In this document: piece after piece, positions 10,155 through 62,677 of the stretch
Layout: each line of letters opens with the position of its first letter
Numbering within the stretch: position 1 is the stretch's first letter
Assembly: GCA_010024875.1 (NCBI GenBank)
Contig: RGFZ01000010.1
Coordinates: forward strand, 4,728-68,727
Reading direction: 5' to 3'
Length of the DNA: 64,000 nt
Source: Oxalobacteraceae bacterium
GTDB taxonomy: Bacteria; Pseudomonadota; Gammaproteobacteria; Burkholderiales; Burkholderiaceae_D
The notes under the pieces: generated by a model
What the model was told of the DNA's origin: nothing
The model's input: only the letters and a program-made list of their open reading frames with translations
Database searches by the model: none
Program-made: the position numbers and the translations under genes

Positions 10155-11216
10155 ATGCATCACTCCCCCCGCTGGAAGCAAAGACCCTCAGGCTCAAACT
10201 GGGGAGATTTCGGTCCCGATGATCAACTGGGACGATTGAACCTGATCACTCAGCAGAAGATCTTGCAAGGTATCGCTGAGGTGCGGGAAGGCCTTGCTTT
10301 CAATCTCAGTTTGCCGCTGGATGTCCCAGGCGGGAATGTGCTGAACCCGCGACGATACCCTCCTGTGCTCCGTCCCACCCTGCGTAACCGGCAGCCCAAT
10401 TTGAATTACGTGTTGGGTAAGGATGATCCCACGCATACTGATGTCATCAGCGATGATCTCGTGATTCTTCACACGCAATACAGCACGCAGTGGGACAGTC
10501 TGGCACACGTAGGTTCTTTGTTCGATGCCGATGGCGATGGCCAAGCGGAGGCGGTGTACTACAACGGTTATCGCGCCGGCCAAGATGTTTTCGGACCAAG
10601 CGACCCCTCTGACTGCGGCGCCTTTGACCTGCCGCCGATCGGACAACGCTCCACTTCGCACGCGCGCGCACTGGGCATGGAACACATGGCCGAACGCTGC
10701 GTGCAGGGGCGCGCAGTGATGATTGATCTTCATGCACATGTCGGCAATCAACGCGTGAACGTCGACTATGCGATGCTGGCCGACATCCTGAACAAAGACA
10801 AAGTGCGGATCGAACCGGGCGATATGGTCTGCCTGCATACGGGCTTTGCAGAGCTTCTGCTCGGCATGAACCGACAACCGGATGGTGAACGACTCGCGAA
10901 CAGTTGCGCAGTGCTCGAAGGACGCGATCCTCGTCTGCTGCAGTGGATCACGGAGTCGCAACTGTCCGTGCTTATCGCGGATAACTATGCGGTCGAGGCT
11001 CACCCTGCCTCTTCACATGACGGTCATTGCGCAGCACTGCCGCTGCATGAGCATTGTCTGTTCAAGCTGGGCATTCATCTGGGCGAGCTGTGGCATCTGA
11101 CTCCACTGGCACGCTGGCTGCGTGCGAATCAACGTTCCTGCTTTCTGCTGACCGCACCACCACTGCGTTTGCCCGGTGCGGTGGGCTCGCCGGTCGCGCC
11201 AGTCGGCACGGTCTAG
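10155..11216 (+). CDS. Cyclase family (kynurenine formamidase-like) metal-dependent hydrolase
   Basis: SNWGDFGPDDQLGRLN, QYSTQWDSLAH, DNYAVE, LHEHCLFKLGIHLGELW. Confidence 0.88.
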   Translation: MHHSPRWKQRPSGSNWGDFGPDDQLGRLNLITQQKILQGIAEVREGLAFNLSLPLDVPGGNVLNPRRYPPVLRPTLRNRQPNLNYVLGKDDPTHTDVISDDLVILHTQYSTQWDSLAHVGSLFDADGDGQAEAVYYNGYRAGQDVFGPSDPSDCGAFDLPPIGQRSTSHARALGMEHMAERCVQGRAVMIDLHAHVGNQRVNVDYAMLADILNKDKVRIEPGDMVCLHTGFAELLLGMNRQPDGERLANSCAVLEGRDPRLLQWITESQLSVLIADNYAVEAHPASSHDGHCAALPLHEHCLFKLGIHLGELWHLTPLARWLRANQRSCFLLTAPPLRLPGAVGSPVAPVGTV

Positions 11217-11299
11217 CCGCCGATTGCGATTGTGCGAGAATTAAAGCCTCGGACAGCATCGTCTTATTCAAACACTTTTATAAAAACAAAGGAGACCTT

Positions 11300-12493
11300 A
11301 TGTCCCAGCATGTGCATGTCGTCGGCGTCGGCATGATCCCCTTCACCAAACCGGGCGCGAGCGATCCCTATCATCTGATGGGCGCACGCGCGATGCGGGC
11401 GGCACTGGAAGACGCGGGTCTCGATTACTCTGCGATCCAGCAAGTCTATGCGGGATATGTGTATGGCGATTCCTGCTGCGGACAGCGCGCCGTTTATGAA
11501 GTCGGCATGAGCGGTGTACCGGTCATCAATGTGAACAACAATTGCTCGACCGGCTCCACCGCGCTGTGGCTTGCGCGACAAGCCGTTGCTTCAGGCGCTG
11601 TTGACTGTGTAATGGCCGTCGGCTTTGAACAAATGAAGCCCGGCGCTCTCGGTAATGTGTATGAGGATCGTCCTTCGCCTTTTGATCGCTTCGATGAGAC
11701 CAGCAACCGACTGGTGCCTGCAGAAGGGATTCCGCTGGCGCTGCGCTATTTTGGCGGTGCGGGCCTGGCACACATGAAGCAATACGGCACCAAGCTGGAG
11801 ACTTTTGCGAAGATACGCGCCAAAGCTAGCCGCCATGCGGCGAACAATCCGCTGGCCTTGTTCAAAACCGTCGTGACTGAAGAAGAAGTGATGGCCGCAC
11901 CCGCAGTCTGGCCGGGCGTAATGACTCGACTGATGGCCTGCCCACCTACTTGCGGCGGCGCGGCAGCGATTGTCTGCTCGGAAGCCTTCGCGAAAAAACA
12001 TGGCCTGGATATGCGCGTTCGTATCCGTGCGCAGGCGATGACGACAGACTTCGATTCCACGTTTGGTGGCCCGCACAGCGATATGCGCCAGCTGGTCGGC
12101 TTCGATATGACCCATGCAGCGGCACAGCAAGTGTATGAAGTGGCGGGTGTGGATCCGAAAGATATTCCAGTCGTCGAGCTGCATGACTGCTTCGCGCACA
12201 ATGAACTCATCACCTACGAAGGACTGGGCCTGTGCCCCGAGGGTGGTGCGGAAAAATTCATCATGGATGGCGACAATACCTATGGCGGCCGCACGGTGAC
12301 GAATCCCTCCGGTGGTTTGCTATCCAAAGGCCACCCGCTGGGTGCAACGGGTCTAGCGCAGTGCACGGAACTGGTCAATCAGTTACGAGGTACCGCCGAC
12401 AAGCGTCAGGTTGAAGGCGCAGCACTCGCTTTGCAGCACAATCTCGGGCTGGGCGGTGCGTGTGTGGTGACACTCTATGAGAAGCTCGCCTGA
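11300..12493 (+). CDS. SCP-x-type thiolase (lipid-transfer protein family)
   Basis: ATG 11300 after GGAGA; NNNCSTGS, ELHDCFA, NPSGGLLSKGHPLGATG, HNLGLGG. Confidence 0.92.
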   Translation: MSQHVHVVGVGMIPFTKPGASDPYHLMGARAMRAALEDAGLDYSAIQQVYAGYVYGDSCCGQRAVYEVGMSGVPVINVNNNCSTGSTALWLARQAVASGAVDCVMAVGFEQMKPGALGNVYEDRPSPFDRFDETSNRLVPAEGIPLALRYFGGAGLAHMKQYGTKLETFAKIRAKASRHAANNPLALFKTVVTEEEVMAAPAVWPGVMTRLMACPPTCGGAAAIVCSEAFAKKHGLDMRVRIRAQAMTTDFDSTFGGPHSDMRQLVGFDMTHAAAQQVYEVAGVDPKDIPVVELHDCFAHNELITYEGLGLCPEGGAEKFIMDGDNTYGGRTVTNPSGGLLSKGHPLGATGLAQCTELVNQLRGTADKRQVEGAALALQHNLGLGGACVVTLYEKLA

Positions 12494-43833: not shown

Positions 43834-43931
43834 TGCCTCTGTAAAACGTTGATAGCTAGGCGTGCTGCCGCAGACAGTGTGGTGGCACGGCAAGGCAGTG
43901 TAATAACGCTAGCGACGTTTTGTCAGAGGCA
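43834..43931 (+). other. ~100-nt nested stem-loop between binding-protein and ATPase genes
   Basis: tgcctctgtaaaacgt pairs with acgttttgtcagaggca; inner gctag/ctagc and tgccg/cggca arms. Confidence 0.5.
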
Positions 43932-43964
43932 CTTAACGCACTATCGCACTCACGGAGAAACCTG

Positions 43965-44747
43965 ATGCTGCACAGCGCAGACATGCACAGAATCAGCGGC
44001 GATGCTCTCATACTTGAGGGCGTCACCCGCGCGTTCGGTGCACTGAAGGCTATCGATGATGTGACATTCAGCGTGCCGGCCGGCGAGCGCCGCGCCGTGC
44101 TGGGAGCGAATGGTGCGGGCAAGACCACGCTGTTCAATGCGATCACGGGCGATTTTCCGCCCACGGCGGGCCGGGTGATGTTCTTTGGCGAGGACATCAC
44201 CCGACTGCCGCCCTATGAACGCATACGACGCGGCATGCGCCGCACGTATCAGTCTTCTTTGTTGTTCCGCGAACTGTCGGTACGGGATAACCTGTATCTC
44301 GCCACGCAAGGCATCAGCGGCGGACGTTTCAGCGTGCTGCGCCGGCGCGATGATGACGCGCTGCTGGCAGCGACTCAGATCCTACTGGACCTGGTGCATC
44401 TCGACCACCTATCGGAGATGCCCGTCAGCCTGCTCTCGCACGGCCAGCAACGTCAGCTGGAAGTCGGCATGGCGCTGGCCGGTGCGCCCCGCCTCATTCT
44501 GTTTGATGAGCCAGCCGCCGGGCTGTCACCCGCCGAACGTCGCGAGCTGGTGAATATCCTGCAAGGCTTACCGCGGCATATAGGCTTTGTGCTCATCGAG
44601 CATGACCTCGACATCGCGCTGCGCGTGGTCGATCGCGTGACCATCATGCACAATGGTCGACTGCTCAAGCACGGCACGCCGCAGGAAATCGAGAACGATG
44701 CCGAAGTGCAGGCAATCTACATGGGGAGCGGTCATCATGGCCATTAA
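43965..44747 (+). CDS. livG: ABC ATP-binding protein (LivG family)
   Basis: GANGAGKT, LSHGQQRQ, LFDEP, IEHD. Confidence 0.92.
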   Translation: MLHSADMHRISGDALILEGVTRAFGALKAIDDVTFSVPAGERRAVLGANGAGKTTLFNAITGDFPPTAGRVMFFGEDITRLPPYERIRRGMRRTYQSSLLFRELSVRDNLYLATQGISGGRFSVLRRRDDDALLAATQILLDLVHLDHLSEMPVSLLSHGQQRQLEVGMALAGAPRLILFDEPAAGLSPAERRELVNILQGLPRHIGFVLIEHDLDIALRVVDRVTIMHNGRLLKHGTPQEIENDAEVQAIYMGSGHHGH

Positions 44748-46992
44748 GTTCTTTGGCCGCGGTGGCGGCAACAGCCCCATTCTCGAGATCTCGAATCTCG
44801 ATATTTACTATGGCAAGGCGCATGCGGTGCAAGGCGTCTCGCTGACTTTACAAAAAGGCGTGCTCGGCGTAGTCGGCAAAAACGGCATGGGCAAGACTTC
44901 GCTATGCAATGCGATCACCGGATTGGTACCGGCGCGCGGCAGCATCAAGCTGGCCGGTGAAGAAATCCTTGGCCTGCCGCCGCATGCGATCACGGCGAAA
45001 GGTATAGGCTATGTGCCGCAGGGACGACGTGTATGGCCATCGCTGTCGGTCGATGAGCACTTGCGTCTGGCTGCAAAAAGCGTACGCAGTGGCGAGTGGA
45101 CAGTGGAGCGCATTTATCAATTGTTTCCCCGTCTGGGCGAGCGCAAGAGTAATGGCGGCTCGCAACTGTCAGGCGGCGAGCAGCAAATGCTGGCGATCGG
45201 CCGCGCGCTGCTGTTCAATCCGCGCCTGCTGGTGATGGACGAGCCCACCGAAGGACTGGCGCCGGTGATCGTCGAGCATGTCGCTGACACGCTGAAGACC
45301 CTGGCCAGCGAAGGCAATATTTCAGTGCTGCTGATCGAGCAGAACCTGGGCGTCGCGGTCGATGTGGCCGACAACGTCGCAGTGATGATGAACGGCCGTG
45401 TCGCGCGTACCCTGCCCGCACGCGAGCTGGCTGCCGATGTGAATCTGCAGCATCAGCTGCTGGGCGTCAGACAGTCTGCCGACGACGAGGGCGGTGCAGA
45501 AGCTTTAACGGTACCCGAAGTCGATGATGAGACGCCAGTGCGCGTATTCACAGTAGCGCGCGCGGAGGACAATGGACTGCCGCGTAATGATGCGACGACC
45601 GATGCTTCGCGCACCGTACGCAACTTCAATCGCTGGAATCAGGGTGCCACAGGTGCGACATTGAAGGATCTTTCGCTGGGCGATCGTCCGTCGGAAGCAA
45701 GTTTTGAACATGTTTCGGCACCCATCGAGCATAAAGCGCAAGTCTTCGAATTCAGTGTTGCGCATACTGCGAACCGTGCAGCCTACATCGCCGGCACCTT
45801 CGACACCAAGGGCCGCGAGCTGTTCTTCCTCAAGAACTGCATGGAAAAGCTTGGCCTTCGCACGGTGACCGTCGATCTATCGACATCGGGCAAACCATCG
45901 CCGGCGAACATTCATCCGCGTGAGATCGCGCGTTTTCATCCCAAGGGCGAACGCGGCGTATTTACCGATGACCGTGGCACGGCGGTCACTGCCATGGCGC
46001 TCGCATTCGAAAATTTCATTGTGTCGCGGCGCGATCTGGGCGGCATGATTTCTGCAGGTGGATCGGGCGGGACCGCGCTGGCCACGCCCGCAATGCGCCG
46101 CCTGCCCGTGGGCATGCCCAAGGTGATGGTGTCTACCGTCGCTTCGGGTGACGTCAAGCCTTATGTAGGCCCAAGCGATATCTGCATGATGTATTCCGTC
46201 ACGGATGTGTCGGGCATCAATCGCATCAGCGAGCGCGTGCTATCGAATGCTGCGCATGCGCTTGCCGGCATGATTGCTTACGCACGTGAAGAATCCAAGG
46301 ACAGCAAGCCGGCGATTGGGTTAACGATGTTCGGCGTCACTACGCCGTGCGTGCAGGCGACGACGAAACTACTGGAAGAGGAATTCGACTGTCTGGTATT
46401 TCATGCGACCGGCACCGGTGGCCAGTCCATGGAAAAACTGGTCGACAGCGGACTCATCTCTGGTGTGATCGATGTCTCCACCACAGAGATCGCTGACGAG
46501 ATCGGCGGTGGCATACTCTCGGCAGGAACGGAGCGCATGGACGCGATCATCCGCTCGCGCATTCCGTATGTCGGTACCTGCGGCGCTCTGGACATGGTGA
46601 ATTTCTGGGCGCGCGACACCGTCCCCTCGAGATTGAATGATCGCCTGTTCTATCAGCACAATCCGAATGTCACGCTGATGCGCACCACTGTTGAAGAGAA
46701 TATCAAGATCGGCGAGTTTATCGCCGGCAAGCTCAATCAAATGGAAGGCCCGGTGCGTTTCGTGTTGCCGATGGGCGGCGTGTCAGCGCTGGATGCGCCC
46801 GGCAAGGCGTTCTGGAATCCCGAAGCGGACAATGCGCTGTTCCAGACCATAGAAAAAAACTTCAGACCGGGCAGTCAGCGACGGCTGATCAAGTCGCCAC
46901 TGCATCTGAATGATCCGCAGTTCGCGGAAGAGCTCGCAAAACATTTTCACGAGTTGAATGCGCAGTCCGGTGCGCGTCGCCGGGCGCTGTGA
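44737..46992 (+). CDS. Fusion: LivF-type ABC ATPase + Tm-1-like ATP-binding (UPF0261) domain
   Basis: N-terminal GKNGMGKT, LSGGEQQ, MDEP, EQN; acidic linker; C-terminal GTFDTKG.E, GGSGGT, P.G.PK.MVST, TMFGVTTPCV, FHATGTGG, GALDMVNF; single open frame. Confidence 0.9.
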   Translation: MAIKFFGRGGGNSPILEISNLDIYYGKAHAVQGVSLTLQKGVLGVVGKNGMGKTSLCNAITGLVPARGSIKLAGEEILGLPPHAITAKGIGYVPQGRRVWPSLSVDEHLRLAAKSVRSGEWTVERIYQLFPRLGERKSNGGSQLSGGEQQMLAIGRALLFNPRLLVMDEPTEGLAPVIVEHVADTLKTLASEGNISVLLIEQNLGVAVDVADNVAVMMNGRVARTLPARELAADVNLQHQLLGVRQSADDEGGAEALTVPEVDDETPVRVFTVARAEDNGLPRNDATTDASRTVRNFNRWNQGATGATLKDLSLGDRPSEASFEHVSAPIEHKAQVFEFSVAHTANRAAYIAGTFDTKGRELFFLKNCMEKLGLRTVTVDLSTSGKPSPANIHPREIARFHPKGERGVFTDDRGTAVTAMALAFENFIVSRRDLGGMISAGGSGGTALATPAMRRLPVGMPKVMVSTVASGDVKPYVGPSDICMMYSVTDVSGINRISERVLSNAAHALAGMIAYAREESKDSKPAIGLTMFGVTTPCVQATTKLLEEEFDCLVFHATGTGGQSMEKLVDSGLISGVIDVSTTEIADEIGGGILSAGTERMDAIIRSRIPYVGTCGALDMVNFWARDTVPSRLNDRLFYQHNPNVTLMRTTVEENIKIGEFIAGKLNQMEGPVRFVLPMGGVSALDAPGKAFWNPEADNALFQTIEKNFRPGSQRRLIKSPLHLNDPQFAEELAKHFHELNAQSGARRRAL

Positions 46993-47004: not shown

Positions 47005-47838
47005 ATGGCACGCATACCCAGAGAAAAAATACTCGCGAAACTGCACGGCATGATCGCGCGCGGCGAGCCCATCATCGGCGGCGGTGCAGGCACCGGACTG
47101 TCCGCAAAATGCGAAGAGTTGGCTGGTATCGATCTGATCGTGATCTACAACTCAGGCCGTTACAGGATGGCGGGCCGCGGCTCGCTCGCCGGGCTGCTTG
47201 CCTACGGTAATGCCAATGACATCGTAGTCGACATGGCGAAAGAGGTGCTGCCGGTCGTGAAGCACACGCCGGTGCTGGCGGGCGTGAACGGCACCGATCC
47301 TTTCATGTCGCCCGAACCCTTCCTGAAAAAACTGATGGAGATGGGCTTCTCCGGCATACAGAATTTTCCAACGGTCGGCCTGATCGATGGCCTGTTCCGT
47401 GCAAACCTCGAAGAAACCGGCATGGGCTATGGGCTCGAGGTCGAGGTCGTTCGGCTGGCGCGGAAAATGGACCTACTGACCACGCCCTATGTGTTCTCCG
47501 AGCAGAACGCGATCGATATGGCAAAGGCTGGTGCGGACATCATCGTCTGCCATATGGGCTTGACCACCGGCGGGACGATCGGTGCCGATACCGCGCTGAA
47601 GCTACCAGACTGCGTGCCACTGATCGACCAGTGGTGTGCGGCCGCAAAGAAAGTCAATCCAGACGTGATTCTCCTTTGCCATGGGGGGCCGATTGCGATG
47701 CCCGAGGATGCTGGCTATATCCTCAAACATTGTCCGCAGTTGCACGGCTTTTATGGCGCATCGAGCATGGAAAGACTACCGACCGAAGTCGCGATCACTG
47801 AACAGACCAGACAGTTCAAAAAAATAAGCCGCAATTAA
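47005..47838 (+). CDS. PEP-hydrolase-like / TIM-barrel signal-transduction family protein
   Basis: [57 protein letters not shown]. Confidence 0.9.
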
Positions 47839-58130: not shown

Positions 58131-59036
58131 TCAGGTCAACCCTTTCTCTTCCCTCACCTGCGCGGCAATCGCCTCCACCTGCTCGTCGCTGATGCCCAGA
58201 CGCTTCTTGAGTTCTTCGAGCTTGATGCGCTCTTCATCGGTAACGATGCCATCGGCTAGCGCCTCGCGTATCTCCATCTCGTACATCACCGCGCGACGCT
58301 CGACCTGCGTGGTGTAGGCCGTCGCTACCACACCGGTAAGGATAGCCGCCAGTGCAATGCCCAGCACCTGGGTCAGTACCACCAGCACGGTACCGAATAA
58401 CGATTGTGGATCGGCATTACCCCAACCCGAAATAATGGTCAGCAAATACCATTTCATCGTGGACGGGATGGAGGGAAAGACTTCAGGCTGCAGATGTCCT
58501 TCGGCGATGTAGATCAGCGACGAACACAACAGGCAGGAGATCATTAGCAGAAACAATGCCGACGTGAAGGAATCGCGCTCGGCTTTGACTGCTTCGACCA
58601 GATCGGTCAGTGCGCTGTTGTACCTCGAGAGCTTGAAAATACGCATCAGCCTGAACAGTCGCAGGAAGCGCAGGTCGAGGCCGGGAAACAGCAGCTGCAG
58701 GTAAAAAGGTATGGTCCCGAAAAAATCGATGAATCCGTAGAAGCTGAAAATATACTCTTTGCGGCCACGCCAGGCACCGCCCTCATCGGCAGAGTACTTC
58801 ATTGCATAAGACCACACACGCAGTACATATTCGGCTGTAAAGATCATGACGCTCACCACATCGAAAATGTGGAAAAAGTCCGCATAGGCCTCGTGCAGCT
58901 CGTGTACAGACTCGAGAATGATCGCGACTACATTGAGCACCACCACGGAGGCGATAAAAATCTCGCAGTAGCGCGCAGCTTTTTCCTCGACGGAGCCATC
59001 GAGTATCTTGTACAGACGTGTCTGGAAGGATTTCAT
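58131..59036 (-). CDS. 6-TM voltage-gated K+-channel-like ion transporter with non-canonical filter and TerB-like C-terminal helix bundle
   Basis: S1-S4 with LRFLRLFRLMRIFKLSR; pore region PEVFPSIPSTMKWYLLTIISGWGNADP; tail LADGIVTDEE. Confidence 0.85.
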   Translation of the reverse strand: MKSFQTRLYKILDGSVEEKAARYCEIFIASVVVLNVVAIILESVHELHEAYADFFHIFDVVSVMIFTAEYVLRVWSYAMKYSADEGGAWRGRKEYIFSFYGFIDFFGTIPFYLQLLFPGLDLRFLRLFRLMRIFKLSRYNSALTDLVEAVKAERDSFTSALFLLMISCLLCSSLIYIAEGHLQPEVFPSIPSTMKWYLLTIISGWGNADPQSLFGTVLVVLTQVLGIALAAILTGVVATAYTTQVERRAVMYEMEIREALADGIVTDEERIKLEELKKRLGISDEQVEAIAAQVREEKGLT

Positions 59037-59450
59037 CGCCGTTGGTTCAATGGTCGCTGTTGGGTAGTGTCCGTGATCTGGGCAAACCCACCGAATACCC
59101 GTATTTTTATTAATGTTTAGGCTCTCTATTATTCAATAAATTTCCCGGACCGTAAGCGAAAAATATGAACCCTACCGAGATTATTAAGAAACCAATAACA
59201 GTACGCTCAACCAGCGCCGAAAAAGCTGACGCATTTCTGACGAACATCCTCTGAAGGGGTCAATCTGTGGGTTCAGGTACGCCGCGCCGAAGGCCATTGG
59301 AAACTTCATTTCATTAAAGACAATTCCTGGTACTAGACTTGAGGGAAATAAGTTTCAAAAATTCCGGGCTTTCAATAAAATCACGGCGGTGCACTGGACG
59401 CGTTGGCGCTCGGTCTTGATTTTTGACTCATTCACTTACAGGGAATAGAC

Positions 59451-59792
59451 ATGGCAGTCGATAAAGATTACGGCAATCTGCTGGTCGGCAAAGGCGTGAC
59501 GATCAATGGCGTCTTTCAGGTTCCTGGCGAAGCGTTCATCGATGGCAAGGCCGAGGGGGAGCTTACCGCAGATGCGATCAATGTGACCGCGAATGGTGTC
59601 GTGACCGGCAATGCCGTAGCCAGCCACGTGAAGGTAGCCGGACTGATGGAAAAATCAATCACTGCCAAGACCTCGCTCCTGGTTGAATCGACCGGCTCGG
59701 TTCGTGGCTCCATCACCTACTCTGATCTCGAGATCCGCAAAGGCGGCGAGGTGGAAGGAAATATCGTCATTCTTGGCAGTGGCAGCAAGTAA
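59451..59792 (+). CDS. Bactofilin (polymer-forming cytoskeletal protein)
   Basis: LLVGKGVTINGVF...IDGKAEGEL...G.V.GSITY..LEI.KGG.VEG beta-helix repeats. Confidence 0.88.
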   Translation: MAVDKDYGNLLVGKGVTINGVFQVPGEAFIDGKAEGELTADAINVTANGVVTGNAVASHVKVAGLMEKSITAKTSLLVESTGSVRGSITYSDLEIRKGGEVEGNIVILGSGSK

Positions 59793-59815
59793 GGCCTGCC
59801 ATCTCCTGATTAATC

Positions 59816-60625
59816 ATGACCACCGTCTCTCTGCGCGTGCCGGGCTGGCGCGGCGCGATAGAGCGCTTTGTGATGCACCCGTGGATACAACATCTGCTGG
59901 TGGTGCTGATCGTTTTGAACGCGCTGATTCTGGGGTTAGAGACGGATGCCCGGATCCACGAATCGATAGGCCATTATCTGATGGCTATCGACCATATGAT
60001 CCTGGTAATCTTTATCGCGGAACTGGTGCTGTTGATATCAGCACGCGGCCTGCGGTTCTTTACTGATCCGTGGTGCGTGTTCGATTTCATCGTGGTCGGC
60101 ATTGCACTGGTGCCCGCGACGGGCAGCTTGTCAGTGCTGCGTGCGCTCAGGGTCTTGCGGGTACTTCGCTTGATCAACAAAGTGGAGAGCATGCGCAAAG
60201 TGGTCAGTGGCTTGCTGACCTCCCTGCCCAGCCTGGGCTCGGTGTTCAGCCTGATAGTCATCATCTTCTATGTGTCGTCGGTCATCGCCACCAACACGTT
60301 CGGTGCAGCATTTCCCGAGCTGTTTGGTGACATGTTCTTGAGCGCTTTCACGCTGTTTCAGGTGATGACACTGGAGGGCTGGTCGGAGGGTATAGCGCGG
60401 CCGGTGATGCAGGTATTTCCTTACGCATGGATCTTTTTTCTGCTTTTCATCCTGATCGCGACTTTTGTGATCGTGAATCTGTTCATTGCAGTGATCGTTG
60501 ATTCACTGAACTCTCCGTCCAAGTCGGCTCATCCGCCGCTCGCAGAATCGGAACTGAAGGCGCTGCGCGAAGAAATTGCCGAGCTGCGTCAGCTACTGAT
60601 CGAGCAGAAAAAAACTGAACATTAG
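59816..60625 (+). CDS. Bacterial voltage-gated Na+/Ca2+ channel (BacNav family)
   Basis: DPWCVFDFIVV, S4 LRALRVLRVLRL, FPELFG, filter TLEGWSE-GIARPV, NLFIAVIVD, C-terminal coiled coil. Confidence 0.92.
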   Translation: MTTVSLRVPGWRGAIERFVMHPWIQHLLVVLIVLNALILGLETDARIHESIGHYLMAIDHMILVIFIAELVLLISARGLRFFTDPWCVFDFIVVGIALVPATGSLSVLRALRVLRVLRLINKVESMRKVVSGLLTSLPSLGSVFSLIVIIFYVSSVIATNTFGAAFPELFGDMFLSAFTLFQVMTLEGWSEGIARPVMQVFPYAWIFFLLFILIATFVIVNLFIAVIVDSLNSPSKSAHPPLAESELKALREEIAELRQLLIEQKKTEH

Positions 60626-60686: not shown

Positions 60687-60791
60687 TTATCTTTTCTTCA
60701 TCCGCTCGATATTTTGCCGGTTGAAGTGATTGGCCATCATGAAACCCGCGCCAACAACCCAGATGAACAACAGAATTTGCCAGATCTTCAT
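60687..60791 (-). CDS. Small single-TM protein (34 aa), downstream of pucBA
   Basis: MKIWQILLFIWVVGAGFMMANHFNRQNIERMKKR; GGAGAG RBS; stops just before the terminator. Confidence 0.55.
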   Translation of the reverse strand: MKIWQILLFIWVVGAGFMMANHFNRQNIERMKKR

Positions 60792-61086
60792 GCGACTCTC
60801 CCGATGAATTTGTGGTGGAACGTTCCTGCTTTGCTGTGGCCAGTCCACGCTGAACCTAGATTCCGCCTGCCGAATCACCCCTGCGGAAACAGCCCGGGAA
60901 CGCGGGCTCTTTACACGTCCCTTATATCCCTATTATTGCCTAAATCTGGCGATCGGGTGCCAGCGGGGCTGACGCCCGCCACCGATGCCGGCACACCTGC
61001 AGAGCGTCTCTCAGAATCATCCCGACGCGCCGGATGATTGTGAAAGCGTCCCTGACCTATCGTTTTATCTGCTTGCACTACGTGGC

Positions 61087-61117
61087 CGAAGTCCGGGACC
61101 GTGGGTCCCGGACTTCG
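61087..61117 (-). other. Strong stem-loop 8 nt downstream of pucA
   Basis: cgaagtccgggacc-gtg-ggtcccggacttcg, 14-bp perfect stem. Confidence 0.65.
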
Positions 61118-61125
61118 AAGGACGA

Positions 61126-61347
61126 CTATTTTCGTCCCACTTCCTGCAAACTCAATGCCGCCACCTGTGGCGACTCGGGCTGGATGCTCGATACCTGAGC
61201 AGCGCTGCCATTGAGGAACTTCTTGACCCAGGTGGTATTCAGGGTCAGGGCCAGATGCACCGAAAACGACGCGACTGCGACCGCTCCGATGACGATGGGA
61301 ATACCCACCGACGGCTTAACAACGCACCACATTTTTCCATAGATCAT
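61126..61347 (-). CDS. pucA: Light-harvesting complex 2 alpha apoprotein
   Basis: MIYGKMWCVVKPSVGIP...A.S.SVH(31)...TTW(40); typical LH2 alpha layout with extended C-terminus. Confidence 0.93.
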   Translation of the reverse strand: MIYGKMWCVVKPSVGIPIVIGAVAVASFSVHLALTLNTTWVKKFLNGSAAQVSSIQPESPQVAALSLQEVGRK

Positions 61348-61365
61348 GTCTAGTCTCCCCTTCCC

Positions 61366-61518
61366 TTAGTGAAGCCAGGGTGAATAGATATACGCGAGCA
61401 GATGAGCGAATGCTGCGATCATTCCGAAAAGCTGCGTACCTTGGATCAAATGACGGTGTATTTCTTCTGATTCGGCCTCCGTTAAACCGGTCGGCCAAAC
61501 TTTGTCTTTGTCAGACAT
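61366..61518 (-). CDS. pucB: Light-harvesting complex 2 beta apoprotein
   Basis: ATG 61518 after AGGAGG; VWPTGLTEAESEEIH...AAFAHLLAYIYSPWLH. Confidence 0.95.
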   Translation of the reverse strand: MSDKDKVWPTGLTEAESEEIHRHLIQGTQLFGMIAAFAHLLAYIYSPWLH

Positions 61519-61617
61519 CGTGACACCTCCTAGAAAGACATCGCTTACGACTGGATCCATCTCGACGCATCAGCGAGGACACGCAGAATGGCATTGACCA
61601 ACTATCGGTGTAATCGG

Positions 61618-61661
61618 TGTAAGGCCTTCATTACACTTCTAATTGTCCATGAATATTGACA
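61618..61661. promoter_or_regulatory. Tandem PpsR/CrtJ binding palindromes upstream of pucBA
   Basis: TGT-aaggccttcatt-ACA (61618-61635) and TGT-ccatgaatattg-ACA (61644-61661): both exact TGT-N12-ACA, 8 bp apart. Confidence 0.85.
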
Positions 61662-61777
61662 ATTTTTCGGGCGCTAGTCAACCAACTGGTCAGAAAAAAT
61701 ACGCCCAGAATGCAAAAATCCCCGGGATTCCGGGGATTTAGTTAACAGATGCTTACTGTTTCGTTTCGAAAAGGATA

Positions 61778-62677
61778 TCAGTCTGCTCTTCCGCAAAACG
61801 CCAGTATCTCGTCTGCGATCCGCTGCGGAGACTCTCGTTGAGGGAAATGCCCGAGTCCTTCCAACACCACACGCTTGTAGGGGCCATTGAACCAACGCTC
61901 TTTGTCCGCCGAGCTTTGCACGGGATTGACGCCATCCTCCACACCGTGCAGCACCAGCATCGGGGCGTCGAGTACAGGCAAGGGCTTGAGCGCGGCTTCG
62001 TCAGCATCATAGGCAGGGTCGCCCGCCACTAATCCCCAGCGATGACGGTAGGAAGTCAGCACGACGCTGACCCAGTCGGGATTGTCAAACGCCTTGGCGG
62101 TCGCCTCGAATTCTTCCTCGTCATACCAGCCCGCAGGCGCCCACGTCTCCCACATGATGCGGGCAAATCCGCGCCTGTCTTGCGCGAGTGATTTCGCGCC
62201 CAGCGGCGTATCCATGTACCAGTGGTACCAGTAGTTTTTTGCCTGCTGCAGAGACATCGGCTGGCTGGGATCGTTGGTGCCATAACCTACAGACACCATC
62301 ACAAGGTGCGAACCTATGCCGCGCACCAGAGCACCGGCGATCGCCACCGCTCTCGCACCCCAATCGTGCCCGACCAGCACGGGCCGGTCGAGCTTCAGCA
62401 TGTGGACCAATTCAATGAGATCGCGTCCCAGCGCCGCCAGCTGACCGCTGCGCGGCGTATCGGCGGATAAAAATCGCGTACCGGCATATCCGCGCACCGA
62501 TGGCGCGATGACTCGGTATCCAGCACTCGCCAACAAAGGCGCGGTGGTAAACCAGGTGCGGACTGAGTCTGGCCAGCCATGGACCAGCACGGCCGTGCGT
62601 CGGCCTTCGGGATTCCACTCGAGATATTCGATCTCGAGACGCGATGTGTTCACTGAGTGCGCCGTGTATGTGCTCAT
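61778..62677 (-). CDS. Alpha/beta hydrolase (epoxide hydrolase-like)
   Basis: HGWPD, RGYAGT, GHDWGA (Asp nucleophile), GHFPQRE. Confidence 0.9.
   Translation of the reverse strand: MSTYTAHSVNTSRLEIEYLEWNPEGRRTAVLVHGWPDSVRTWFTTAPLLASAGYRVIAPSVRGYAGTRFLSADTPRSGQLAALGRDLIELVHMLKLDRPVLVGHDWGARAVAIAGALVRGIGSHLVMVSVGYGTNDPSQPMSLQQAKNYWYHWYMDTPLGAKSLAQDRRGFARIMWETWAPAGWYDEEEFEATAKAFDNPDWVSVVLTSYRHRWGLVAGDPAYDADEAALKPLPVLDAPMLVLHGVEDGVNPVQSSADKERWFNGPYKRVVLEGLGHFPQRESPQRIADEILAFCGRAD

Follow-up and report, generated by a model that had tools for sequence, protein, structure and literature searches.

What part of the near-infrared spectrum would be captured by the antenna that a pucBA gene pair encodes in an Oxalobacteraceae bacterium? 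The pair lies on contig RGFZ01000010.1, within the stretch of 64,000 nucleotides analyzed here (hereafter the window), and encodes the beta and alpha chains of light-harvesting complex 2 (LH2), a peripheral antenna. An initial annotation had assigned to the alpha chain the blue-shift signature of LH3-type (B800-820) complexes and had expected an antenna absorbing at ~820 nm, of a kind often linked to low-light adaptation. Our analysis leads to a somewhat different answer, which we hold with moderate confidence: the locus would be a functional pucBA operon for a blue-shifted peripheral LH2 of a planktonic riverine Burkholderiales bacterium, with a long-wavelength band at ~813 nm (range 803–826 nm). 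The missing hydrogen bonds behind this answer come from direct reading of the gene and from alignment, and the wavelength is carried over from other species whose structures and spectra have been published. The features that carry the argument are as follows, in window coordinates.

61126..61347, minus strand: pucA, LH2 alpha chain, 73 aa plus stop (open reading frame (ORF), translation, Pfam family PF00556).
61213..61227, minus strand: codons 41–45 of pucA, Val-Lys-Lys-Phe-Leu (direct reading, hydrogen-bond table of PMC9618040, clade statistics).
61267..61269, minus strand: codon 27 of pucA, Ser, at position His-4 (equivalent to alpha-Ser27 of Rhodobacter (Rba.) sphaeroides; Val in PucD of Rhodopseudomonas (Rps.) palustris).
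61129..61206, minus strand: C-terminal extension of the alpha chain, residues 48–73 (clade comparison, AlphaFold).
61366..61518, minus strand: pucB, LH2 beta chain, 50 aa plus stop (PF00556, PDB alignment, metagenome gene calls).

The pucA ORF encodes a genuine LH2 alpha chain. Its translation, read directly from ORF 61347..61126, is MIYGKMWCVVKPSVGIPIVIGAVAVASFSVHLALTLNTTWVKKFLNGSAAQVSSIQPESPQVAALSLQEVGRK (73 aa) and scored 30.4 bits against PF00556 (LHC; gathering score, 23). Comparison with the PDB aligned residues 3–54 without gaps to solved LH2 alpha chains, and residue numbers therefore transfer directly. The top match was the PucD alpha chain of Rps. palustris (7ze3_A, E = 5.2e-16), followed by 7ze8, 7zcu and 7zdi, and then by the B800-820 chains 9dwz and 1ijd. 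Every top match was an LH2, and LH1 chains had much lower scores with alpha, and lower ones with beta. Counted from Met1, the key residues of the alpha chain are Ser27, His31 (CAT, 61257-61255), Val41 (GTC, 61227-61225), Phe44 (TTC, 61218-61216) and Leu45 (CTC, 61215-61213). His31 aligns with the bacteriochlorophyll (BChl)-ligand histidine of solved LH2s, and the N-terminal length is that of nonameric LH2s. The residues and codon positions that the initial annotation had given for His31, Val41, Phe44 and Leu45 are exactly right, and its assignment of the protein to the LH2 alpha chains is confirmed by PF00556 and by the ungapped match to solved chains.

The C-terminal extension, put at ~27 aa in the initial annotation, is fairly described: 26 residues follow Gly47, and the chain is 20 aa longer than the 53-aa chains of Rhodoblastus (Rbl.) acidophilus. 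The extension is polar, weakly conserved and variable in length over the clade, with basic residues at its end. Modeled on its own with AlphaFold, the alpha chain reached a mean predicted local distance difference test (pLDDT) score of 65, with 44–48 in the extension, indicating no confident structure there.

The partner gene is equally typical. The pucB translation is MSDKDKVWPTGLTEAESEEIHRHLIQGTQLFGMIAAFAHLLAYIYSPWLH, preceded by an AGGAGG ribosome-binding site, and the order is beta then alpha, with 18 nt between the pucB stop and the pucA start. The beta chain scored 35.4 bits against PF00556 (cut-off, 23) and matched 7zdi_B (E = 9e-22) and 7ze3_B (E = 7e-20) without gaps, with His39 aligned to the BChl-ligand histidine of solved LH2s. 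Furthermore, gene calls on metagenome contigs include pucB at a length of 50 aa. At its C-terminus, AHLLAYIYSPWLH, the beta chain is essentially the same as those of Rps. palustris, that of PucD-LH2 among them. Gln29 (61434-61432) falls at the position of Arg26 in the PucA beta chain of Rps. palustris (7zcu_B). In Rba. sphaeroides, mutations that remove the B800-binding arginine blue-shift B800 by several nanometers. An Arg-26, printed as ‘alpha-Arg-26’ in the source, is reported to hold the B800 BChl in place by a hydrogen bond (PMC9618040). The beta motif QGTQ[IL]F, which contains the glutamine, is common to the whole clade, Limnohabitans included, save for one QGAQ variant (L045), and the 799-nm band of Limnohabitans suggests that Gln for Arg would have a small effect on B800 in this clade.

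The rule that relates these residues to color was taken from a cryo-electron microscopy comparison of nine LH2 structures (PMC9618040). When both BChls of the coupled pair accept a hydrogen bond at the C3-acetyl group, absorption lies at ~850 nm; one such bond gives ~825 nm, and none gives ~800 nm. The acetyl donors of Rbl. acidophilus 10050 are Trp45 and Tyr44, the sole remaining acetyl bond in the B800-820 complex of strain 7050 comes from alpha-Tyr41, and the PucD-LH2 of Rps. palustris lacks acetyl bonds and absorbs at 803 nm in a single band (PMC9618040). Judged from its sequence, the window alpha chain has no C3-acetyl hydrogen-bond donor at residues 41, 44 and 45, and the Qy band of the ring should therefore sit far blue of 850 nm. 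The donor pattern (V41/F44/L45) matches that of PucD (V41/F44/M45) and not that of LH3 (Y41/F44/L45). Ser27 may still hydrogen bond the C13(1) keto group; in Rba. sphaeroides, Ser27 bonds this group of beta-B850, and the bond is retained in the 826-nm mutant Y44F/Y45L (PMC9618040).

A predicted blue shift relative to 850 nm is thus well supported, and this part of the initial annotation stands since residues 44 and 45 cannot donate. Both reference facts on which it drew are also correct, namely Phe44/Leu45 in Rbl. acidophilus 7050 (1ijd_A) and the B800-826 phenotype of the Tyr-Tyr to Phe-Leu change in Rba. sphaeroides (PMC9618040). Conversely, the LH3 label is not secure for a chain with Val41 in place of Tyr41, one of the defining features of the acidophilus type. 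The proposed ~820 nm is too specific because Val41, which had been seen and left unused, removes the remaining hydrogen bond of LH3; the value falls inside our range, with Ser27 as in the 826-nm mutant, but in its upper part. We expect that the spectrum would be two-banded or merged, with the long-wavelength LH2 band most likely at ~813 nm. This estimate was chosen because Limnohabitans planktonicus is reported with antenna bands at 799 and 813 nm, next to an LH1 band at 865 nm (2025 review, PMC12654162).

Limnohabitans also provides the closest cultured relatives of the window antenna. Its PucA proteins belong to the same clade, with an alpha-chain identity of 62–65% for cultured-type sequences, and share with the window the N-terminus MIYGKMWCVVKPSVG, the motif NTTWVK-x-F-L-NG and the residues S27/V41/F44/L45. 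The beta chains share QGTQ[IL]F...SPWL. However, the window alpha chain has a longer, polar C-terminal extension unrelated in sequence, and its beta chain ends in His, whereas that of Limnohabitans ends in Lys. The genomic settings differ as well: the puc genes of Limnohabitans lie in a photosynthesis gene cluster with pucC, whereas the window pucBA pair is found among housekeeping genes without pucC.

A protein search retrieved 786 homologues of the alpha chain, and 476 encoding stretches turned up when a single genome for each prokaryotic species was scanned. The relatives are nearly all freshwater Burkholderiales, mostly known from metagenome-assembled genomes (MAGs) of Oxalobacteraceae, Burkholderiaceae, Comamonadaceae and Limnohabitans. 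Among the few records without a MAG flag is the cultured Limnohabitans sp. 2KL-17. Several records of the related loci that are titled ‘Oxalobacteraceae bacterium’ (AM_0228, MsE-6, GE-M3 and MaE-M21) also lack this flag and may represent cultures. The signature is carried by Limnohabitans strains 2KL-17, Rim28 and WS1, the latter two in the same 90% cluster. The population of the window itself recurs at >99.5% nucleotide identity on five freshwater metagenome contigs, and the nearest species-representative genome shows ~92% identity over 12.8 kb, thereby representing a neighboring species. The metagenome runs that contain the locus are riverine or freshwater.

Across 204–205 unique clade sequences, the alpha positions M1, S27, F28, H31, N37, T38, V41, L45 and G47 show no variation. 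At residue 44, 165–166 of them have Phe, 38 have Tyr and one has Cys (~81% Phe, 19% Tyr). Because S27, V41 and L45 are invariant and Phe44 is found in 81% of the clade, the signature is not a matter of chance. No second antenna pair was found in the window in a search of all six-frame fragments with a hidden Markov model (HMM) of 120 alpha homologues and with phmmer for the beta chain, and each of the related loci fetched carries one pucBA pair. We infer that the signature is a fixed trait of the lineage and probably not that of a low-light paralogue; the link to low light made in the initial annotation is not borne out, as the signature is lineage-fixed and no B800-850 copy lies beside the one pair present in the window or in any fetched locus.

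Compared with solved and engineered complexes, the locus belongs to the LH2 family and to a Limnohabitans-type freshwater clade, and its sequence suggests that it would most likely work like PucD-LH2 or the Phe-Leu mutant of Rba. sphaeroides. PucD-LH2 (7ZE3; the low-light ‘LH4’ of Rps. palustris) is the best PDB match for alpha and the second best for beta, and shares with the window V41, F44, the lack of a donor at 45, the chain register and the beta C-terminus. It differs by Met45 and Val27, where the window has Leu45 and Ser27, and by an Arg that binds B800 in the beta chain, where the window has Gln. Furthermore, PucD is one of five paralogues, is made only at low light and enters a complex with a gamma subunit, whereas the window signature is fixed in its lineage. 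The Y44F/Y45L mutant of Rba. sphaeroides (B800-826) shares the pigment contacts S27, F44 and L45 (7pbw for Ser27), but is engineered and has Leu41 and a different beta chain. Among other solved LH2 alpha chains, 8z81_a (71 aa) carries S27/Y41/F44/F45 and 9dwz_A (‘B-800/820’) carries F41/F44/Q45; 9lt4_A (‘B-800/814’) matched the window alpha chain weakly (E = 2e-7).

The strongest competitor to a band at ~813 nm is a true LH3-type B800-820 antenna, with the long-wavelength band at ~818–826 nm, which we consider unlikely. The LH3 of Rbl. acidophilus 7050 (1IJD) has an identical F44/L45 pair in the same chain register, 1ijd_A reading ...TTWYAAFLQGG where 1kzu_A reads ...TTWFPAYWQGG, and the Rba. 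sphaeroides mutant that also bears Ser27 is a B800-826 complex. Rhodoferax antarcticus, a betaproteobacterium with F44/F45, peaks at 819 nm (PMC5374385). This species likewise has a sole peripheral antenna (‘LH3 only’) without donors at 44 and 45 as a fixed trait, but it is an anaerobic purple nonsulfur bacterium that lies outside the clade members retrieved, with its puc genes in a photosynthesis gene cluster with pucC. However, the ~820 nm of acidophilus LH3 depends on the Tyr41 bond, and Val41 is invariant in the clade of the window. That LH3 is also a conditionally expressed paralogue, with Ala27 and no C-terminal extension, and the 826 nm of the mutant is tied to measurements at 77 K. Finally, the nearest cultured genus, Limnohabitans, is reported at 813 nm.

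Somewhat less probable again is an LH4-like ‘B800-only’ complex, in which the coupled ring would merge with B800 into one band at ~803–806 nm. The top PDB match, PucD alpha 7ze3_A, points this way with its V41, its lack of donors at 44 and 45 and its single 803-nm band, as do the F44L45 antennae of aerobic phototrophs of the Roseobacter group, which are LH4-like and absorb near 806 nm (PMC12654162). However, Ser27 of the window alpha chain is replaced by Val in PucD, two bands are resolved in Limnohabitans, at 799 and 813 nm, and a gamma subunit that brings additional B800 pigments is also part of the Rps. palustris complexes. A long-wavelength band at ~813 nm remains our preferred expectation.

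Whether the genes are used was addressed with river metatranscriptomes, the upstream region and the region 3’ of pucA. The features are the following.

61135..61623, minus strand: pucBA transcript, from river metatranscriptome contigs (word depth).
61644-61661 and 61618-61635, no strand: two TGT-N12-ACA palindromes with an 8-bp spacer (pattern count, conservation).
61676..61681, minus strand: TTGACT, a conserved -35-like box located upstream of both palindromes (consensus scan and upstream alignment, which is weak evidence alone).
61086..61118, minus strand: 15-bp G+C-rich hairpin, 8 nt past the pucA stop (folding, RNA depth).

The sequence was present in 15 river metatranscriptome runs. In four of these runs, the word depth of pucBA reached hundreds to thousands, compared to 2–6 in the flanking genes, a difference of about a hundredfold. 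The pucBA mRNA ranks with the most abundant transcripts of the window organism in river water. RNA contigs span both pucB and pucA, showing that the two genes form a single transcription unit. Contigs from two runs end at 61623, one of them passing directly into adapter sequence, and the 5’ end of the RNA is therefore probably located near 61623. Variants at codon 44 were all below 10% in these runs.

The probable 5’ end coincides with the pair of palindromes. This double pattern has one occurrence in the window, where 0.02 would be expected. Taken singly, TGT-N12-ACA sites do not exceed what chance would give (13 against 11 expected), and the arrangement carries meaning only as a conserved pair. 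Dozens of species-level genomes have the two palindromes at about -143/-117 of pucB, with the inner 12 bases diverging. A TGT-N12-ACA pair with the spacing seen here is the motif of the PpsR/CrtJ repressors and occurs in pucB promoters, including that of the betaproteobacterium Rubrivivax gelatinosus (PMC4452267). We predict that the palindromes are PpsR/CrtJ-type operators lying over the puc promoter and the RNA 5’ end. Given the conserved pair, pucBA would therefore behave as a member of a photosynthesis regulon, though no further photosynthesis gene was found in the window, and Pfam scans of ~50 window ORFs found no PpsR-like gene. A sigma-70 consensus scan returned weak matches only.

At the other end, the hairpin past pucA is markedly stable (dG of -30 kcal/mol, z = -4.7, none of 200 shuffles as stable). 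It lacks a T run, and RNA depth drops at this point; it is probably a terminator or an mRNA-stabilizing stem-loop. In the model that we propose, transcription would begin within or just past the PpsR-type operators and end at this strong hairpin. A separate intrinsic terminator (61714-61739, minus strand; AAATCCCCGG-AAT-CCCGGGGATTTTT) closes the upstream alpha/beta-hydrolase gene (61778-62677) and divides it from the puc promoter. This arrangement is kept in close relatives.

In model species, the assembly of LH2 is directed by PucC. The clade has 64 other loci in which pucC lies directly 3’ of pucA (PF03209, E = 2e-145 for the copy at 10242-11708 of locus L028). The loci that lack it include near-identical contigs of the window’s own population (L001–L006), and no remnant of pucC was detectable in the 334-nt gap that follows pucA in the window (60792-61125). 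These observations raise a third possibility, namely that the genes are transcribed while little or no LH2 is assembled after the loss of pucC, in a sublineage that is losing its antenna. We regard this as very improbable. The gene is present in most of the clade and missing without remnant from the window and 21 related loci, as such a loss would have it, but the alpha chain, the beta chain and the operator pair are under clear constraint across many pucC-less species, the transcript reaches extremely high levels in situ, and a pucC or lhaA paralogue is likely to exist elsewhere in the genome. An ordinary B800-850 complex, in which donors elsewhere (beta-chain Trp or Tyr, Lys42/43, Asn46) would compensate, is the least credible of all, for although some LH2s (Phs. 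molischianum and Mch. purpuratum) take an acetyl donor from a beta-chain Trp (PMC9618040) and databases annotate proteins of this clade as ‘B-800-850 alpha chain’, that label is generic, the window beta C-terminus resembles that of the 803-nm complex PucD-LH2, and the cultured relatives show no 850-nm band.

Several points nonetheless weigh against a functional antenna at ~813 nm. Neither the 64-kb window nor the 21 related loci contain pucC, and comparison of ~50 window ORFs with Pfam found no reaction-center or LH1 genes (puf, puh) and no bch genes in the window, so that phototrophy is presumptive for this genome. The hundredfold excess of RNA is a contig depth, a crude measure of expression that pools strains at identities of at least 90%. 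The 799/813-nm spectrum would be tied to the exact signature through Limnohabitans strains other than L. planktonicus, the wavelength for the window organism would follow from spectra of other species, and known Phe-Leu or Phe-Met antennae cover the entire 803–826 nm, so that the point estimate is soft.

The Tyr at residue 44 in 38 clade sequences bears on how fixed the color may be. We considered whether the Tyr44 forms could be paralogues and rejected this, as the gene for one of them (P0021) sits in a fully syntenic neighborhood. Phe44 and Tyr44 both occur in several subgroups, and some Phe/Tyr pairs differ at just 2 residues. By sequence and synteny, Phe44 and Tyr44 are alleles of one orthologous locus, of which Tyr44 should bring back one hydrogen bond to an acetyl group and shift the antenna toward the red. 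The corresponding window codon is 61216-61218 (minus strand), for comparison with loci L087–L090, L044 and L056. Residue 44 was also considered as an exceptional substitution hotspot and rejected: it underwent 18–22 changes on a crude tree, like other conservatively varying sites. Because those sites need as many switches, we make no claim of positive selection.

One further ORF accompanies the antenna genes.

60687..60791, minus strand: 34-aa single-helix ORF with a basic tail (conservation, codon-position bias).

This ORF, MKIWQILLFIWVVGAGFMMANHFNRQNIERMKKR, encodes one hydrophobic helix followed by a basic tail, and lies downstream of pucBA or pucBAC, on their strand, in 34 loci despite differing outer neighbors, which are a histidine kinase gene and a gene for an iron-type binding protein in L028, and a hydrolase and ion channels in the window. 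Substitutions fall mainly on the third codon position (1620/1138/5084 for positions 1, 2 and 3). It has no Pfam match, a 63-aa reading of it matched just 4 unnamed database proteins, and its RNA depth is low. It may be a small membrane protein associated with puc, tied to the antenna by position only.

Taken together with the alleles at residue 44, this leads to a broader proposal that we put forward as speculative. Residue 44, the one pigment-contact residue that varies, might have changed repeatedly between Phe and Tyr and act as a natural one-residue color switch among near-identical orthologous alleles of abundant river and lake bacteria, shifting the band from ~813 to ~830–840 nm and tuning planktonic antennae to the narrow range of near-infrared light that passes through water, within a pucC-less sublineage that keeps the undescribed 34-aa membrane protein as a possible LH2 subunit or assembly factor.

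The remainder of the window is of a different nature. Directly downstream of puc (58131-60625), a bactofilin gene lies between two Ion_trans genes of the voltage-gated type (301 aa and 269 aa), an arrangement that is syntenic in close relatives. Further away, a 779-aa ORF (44653-46992, plus strand) combines an ABC-transporter ATPase with both UPF0261 domains and is followed by a PEP-hydrolase-like gene (47005-47838). It is either a true fusion or an over-long call that overlaps ORF 43920-44747. Between 1004 and 43818, at least four Peripla_BP_6 genes (branched-chain amino-acid type), several permease/ATPase sets and many dehydrogenases and hydratases form a heterotrophic uptake and catabolism region without photosynthesis genes.

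The literature already describes freshwater Betaproteobacteria with blue-shifted LH2 (Limnohabitans, Rhodoferax antarcticus) as well as the part played by residues 41, 44 and 45, and our results do not alter that picture. Rivers and lakes contain abundant aerobic anoxygenic phototrophs of the Burkholderiales, and the color of their antenna sets the near-infrared light that they can use. In this context, an antenna that is very highly transcribed in river water bears the signature predicted to leave no acetyl hydrogen bond, and the label ‘B-800-850 alpha chain’ is misleading for the whole clade. With S27, V41 and L45 fixed and either Phe or Tyr at residue 44, the clade provides a natural series for testing the hydrogen-bond tuning rule beyond the classic purple bacteria.

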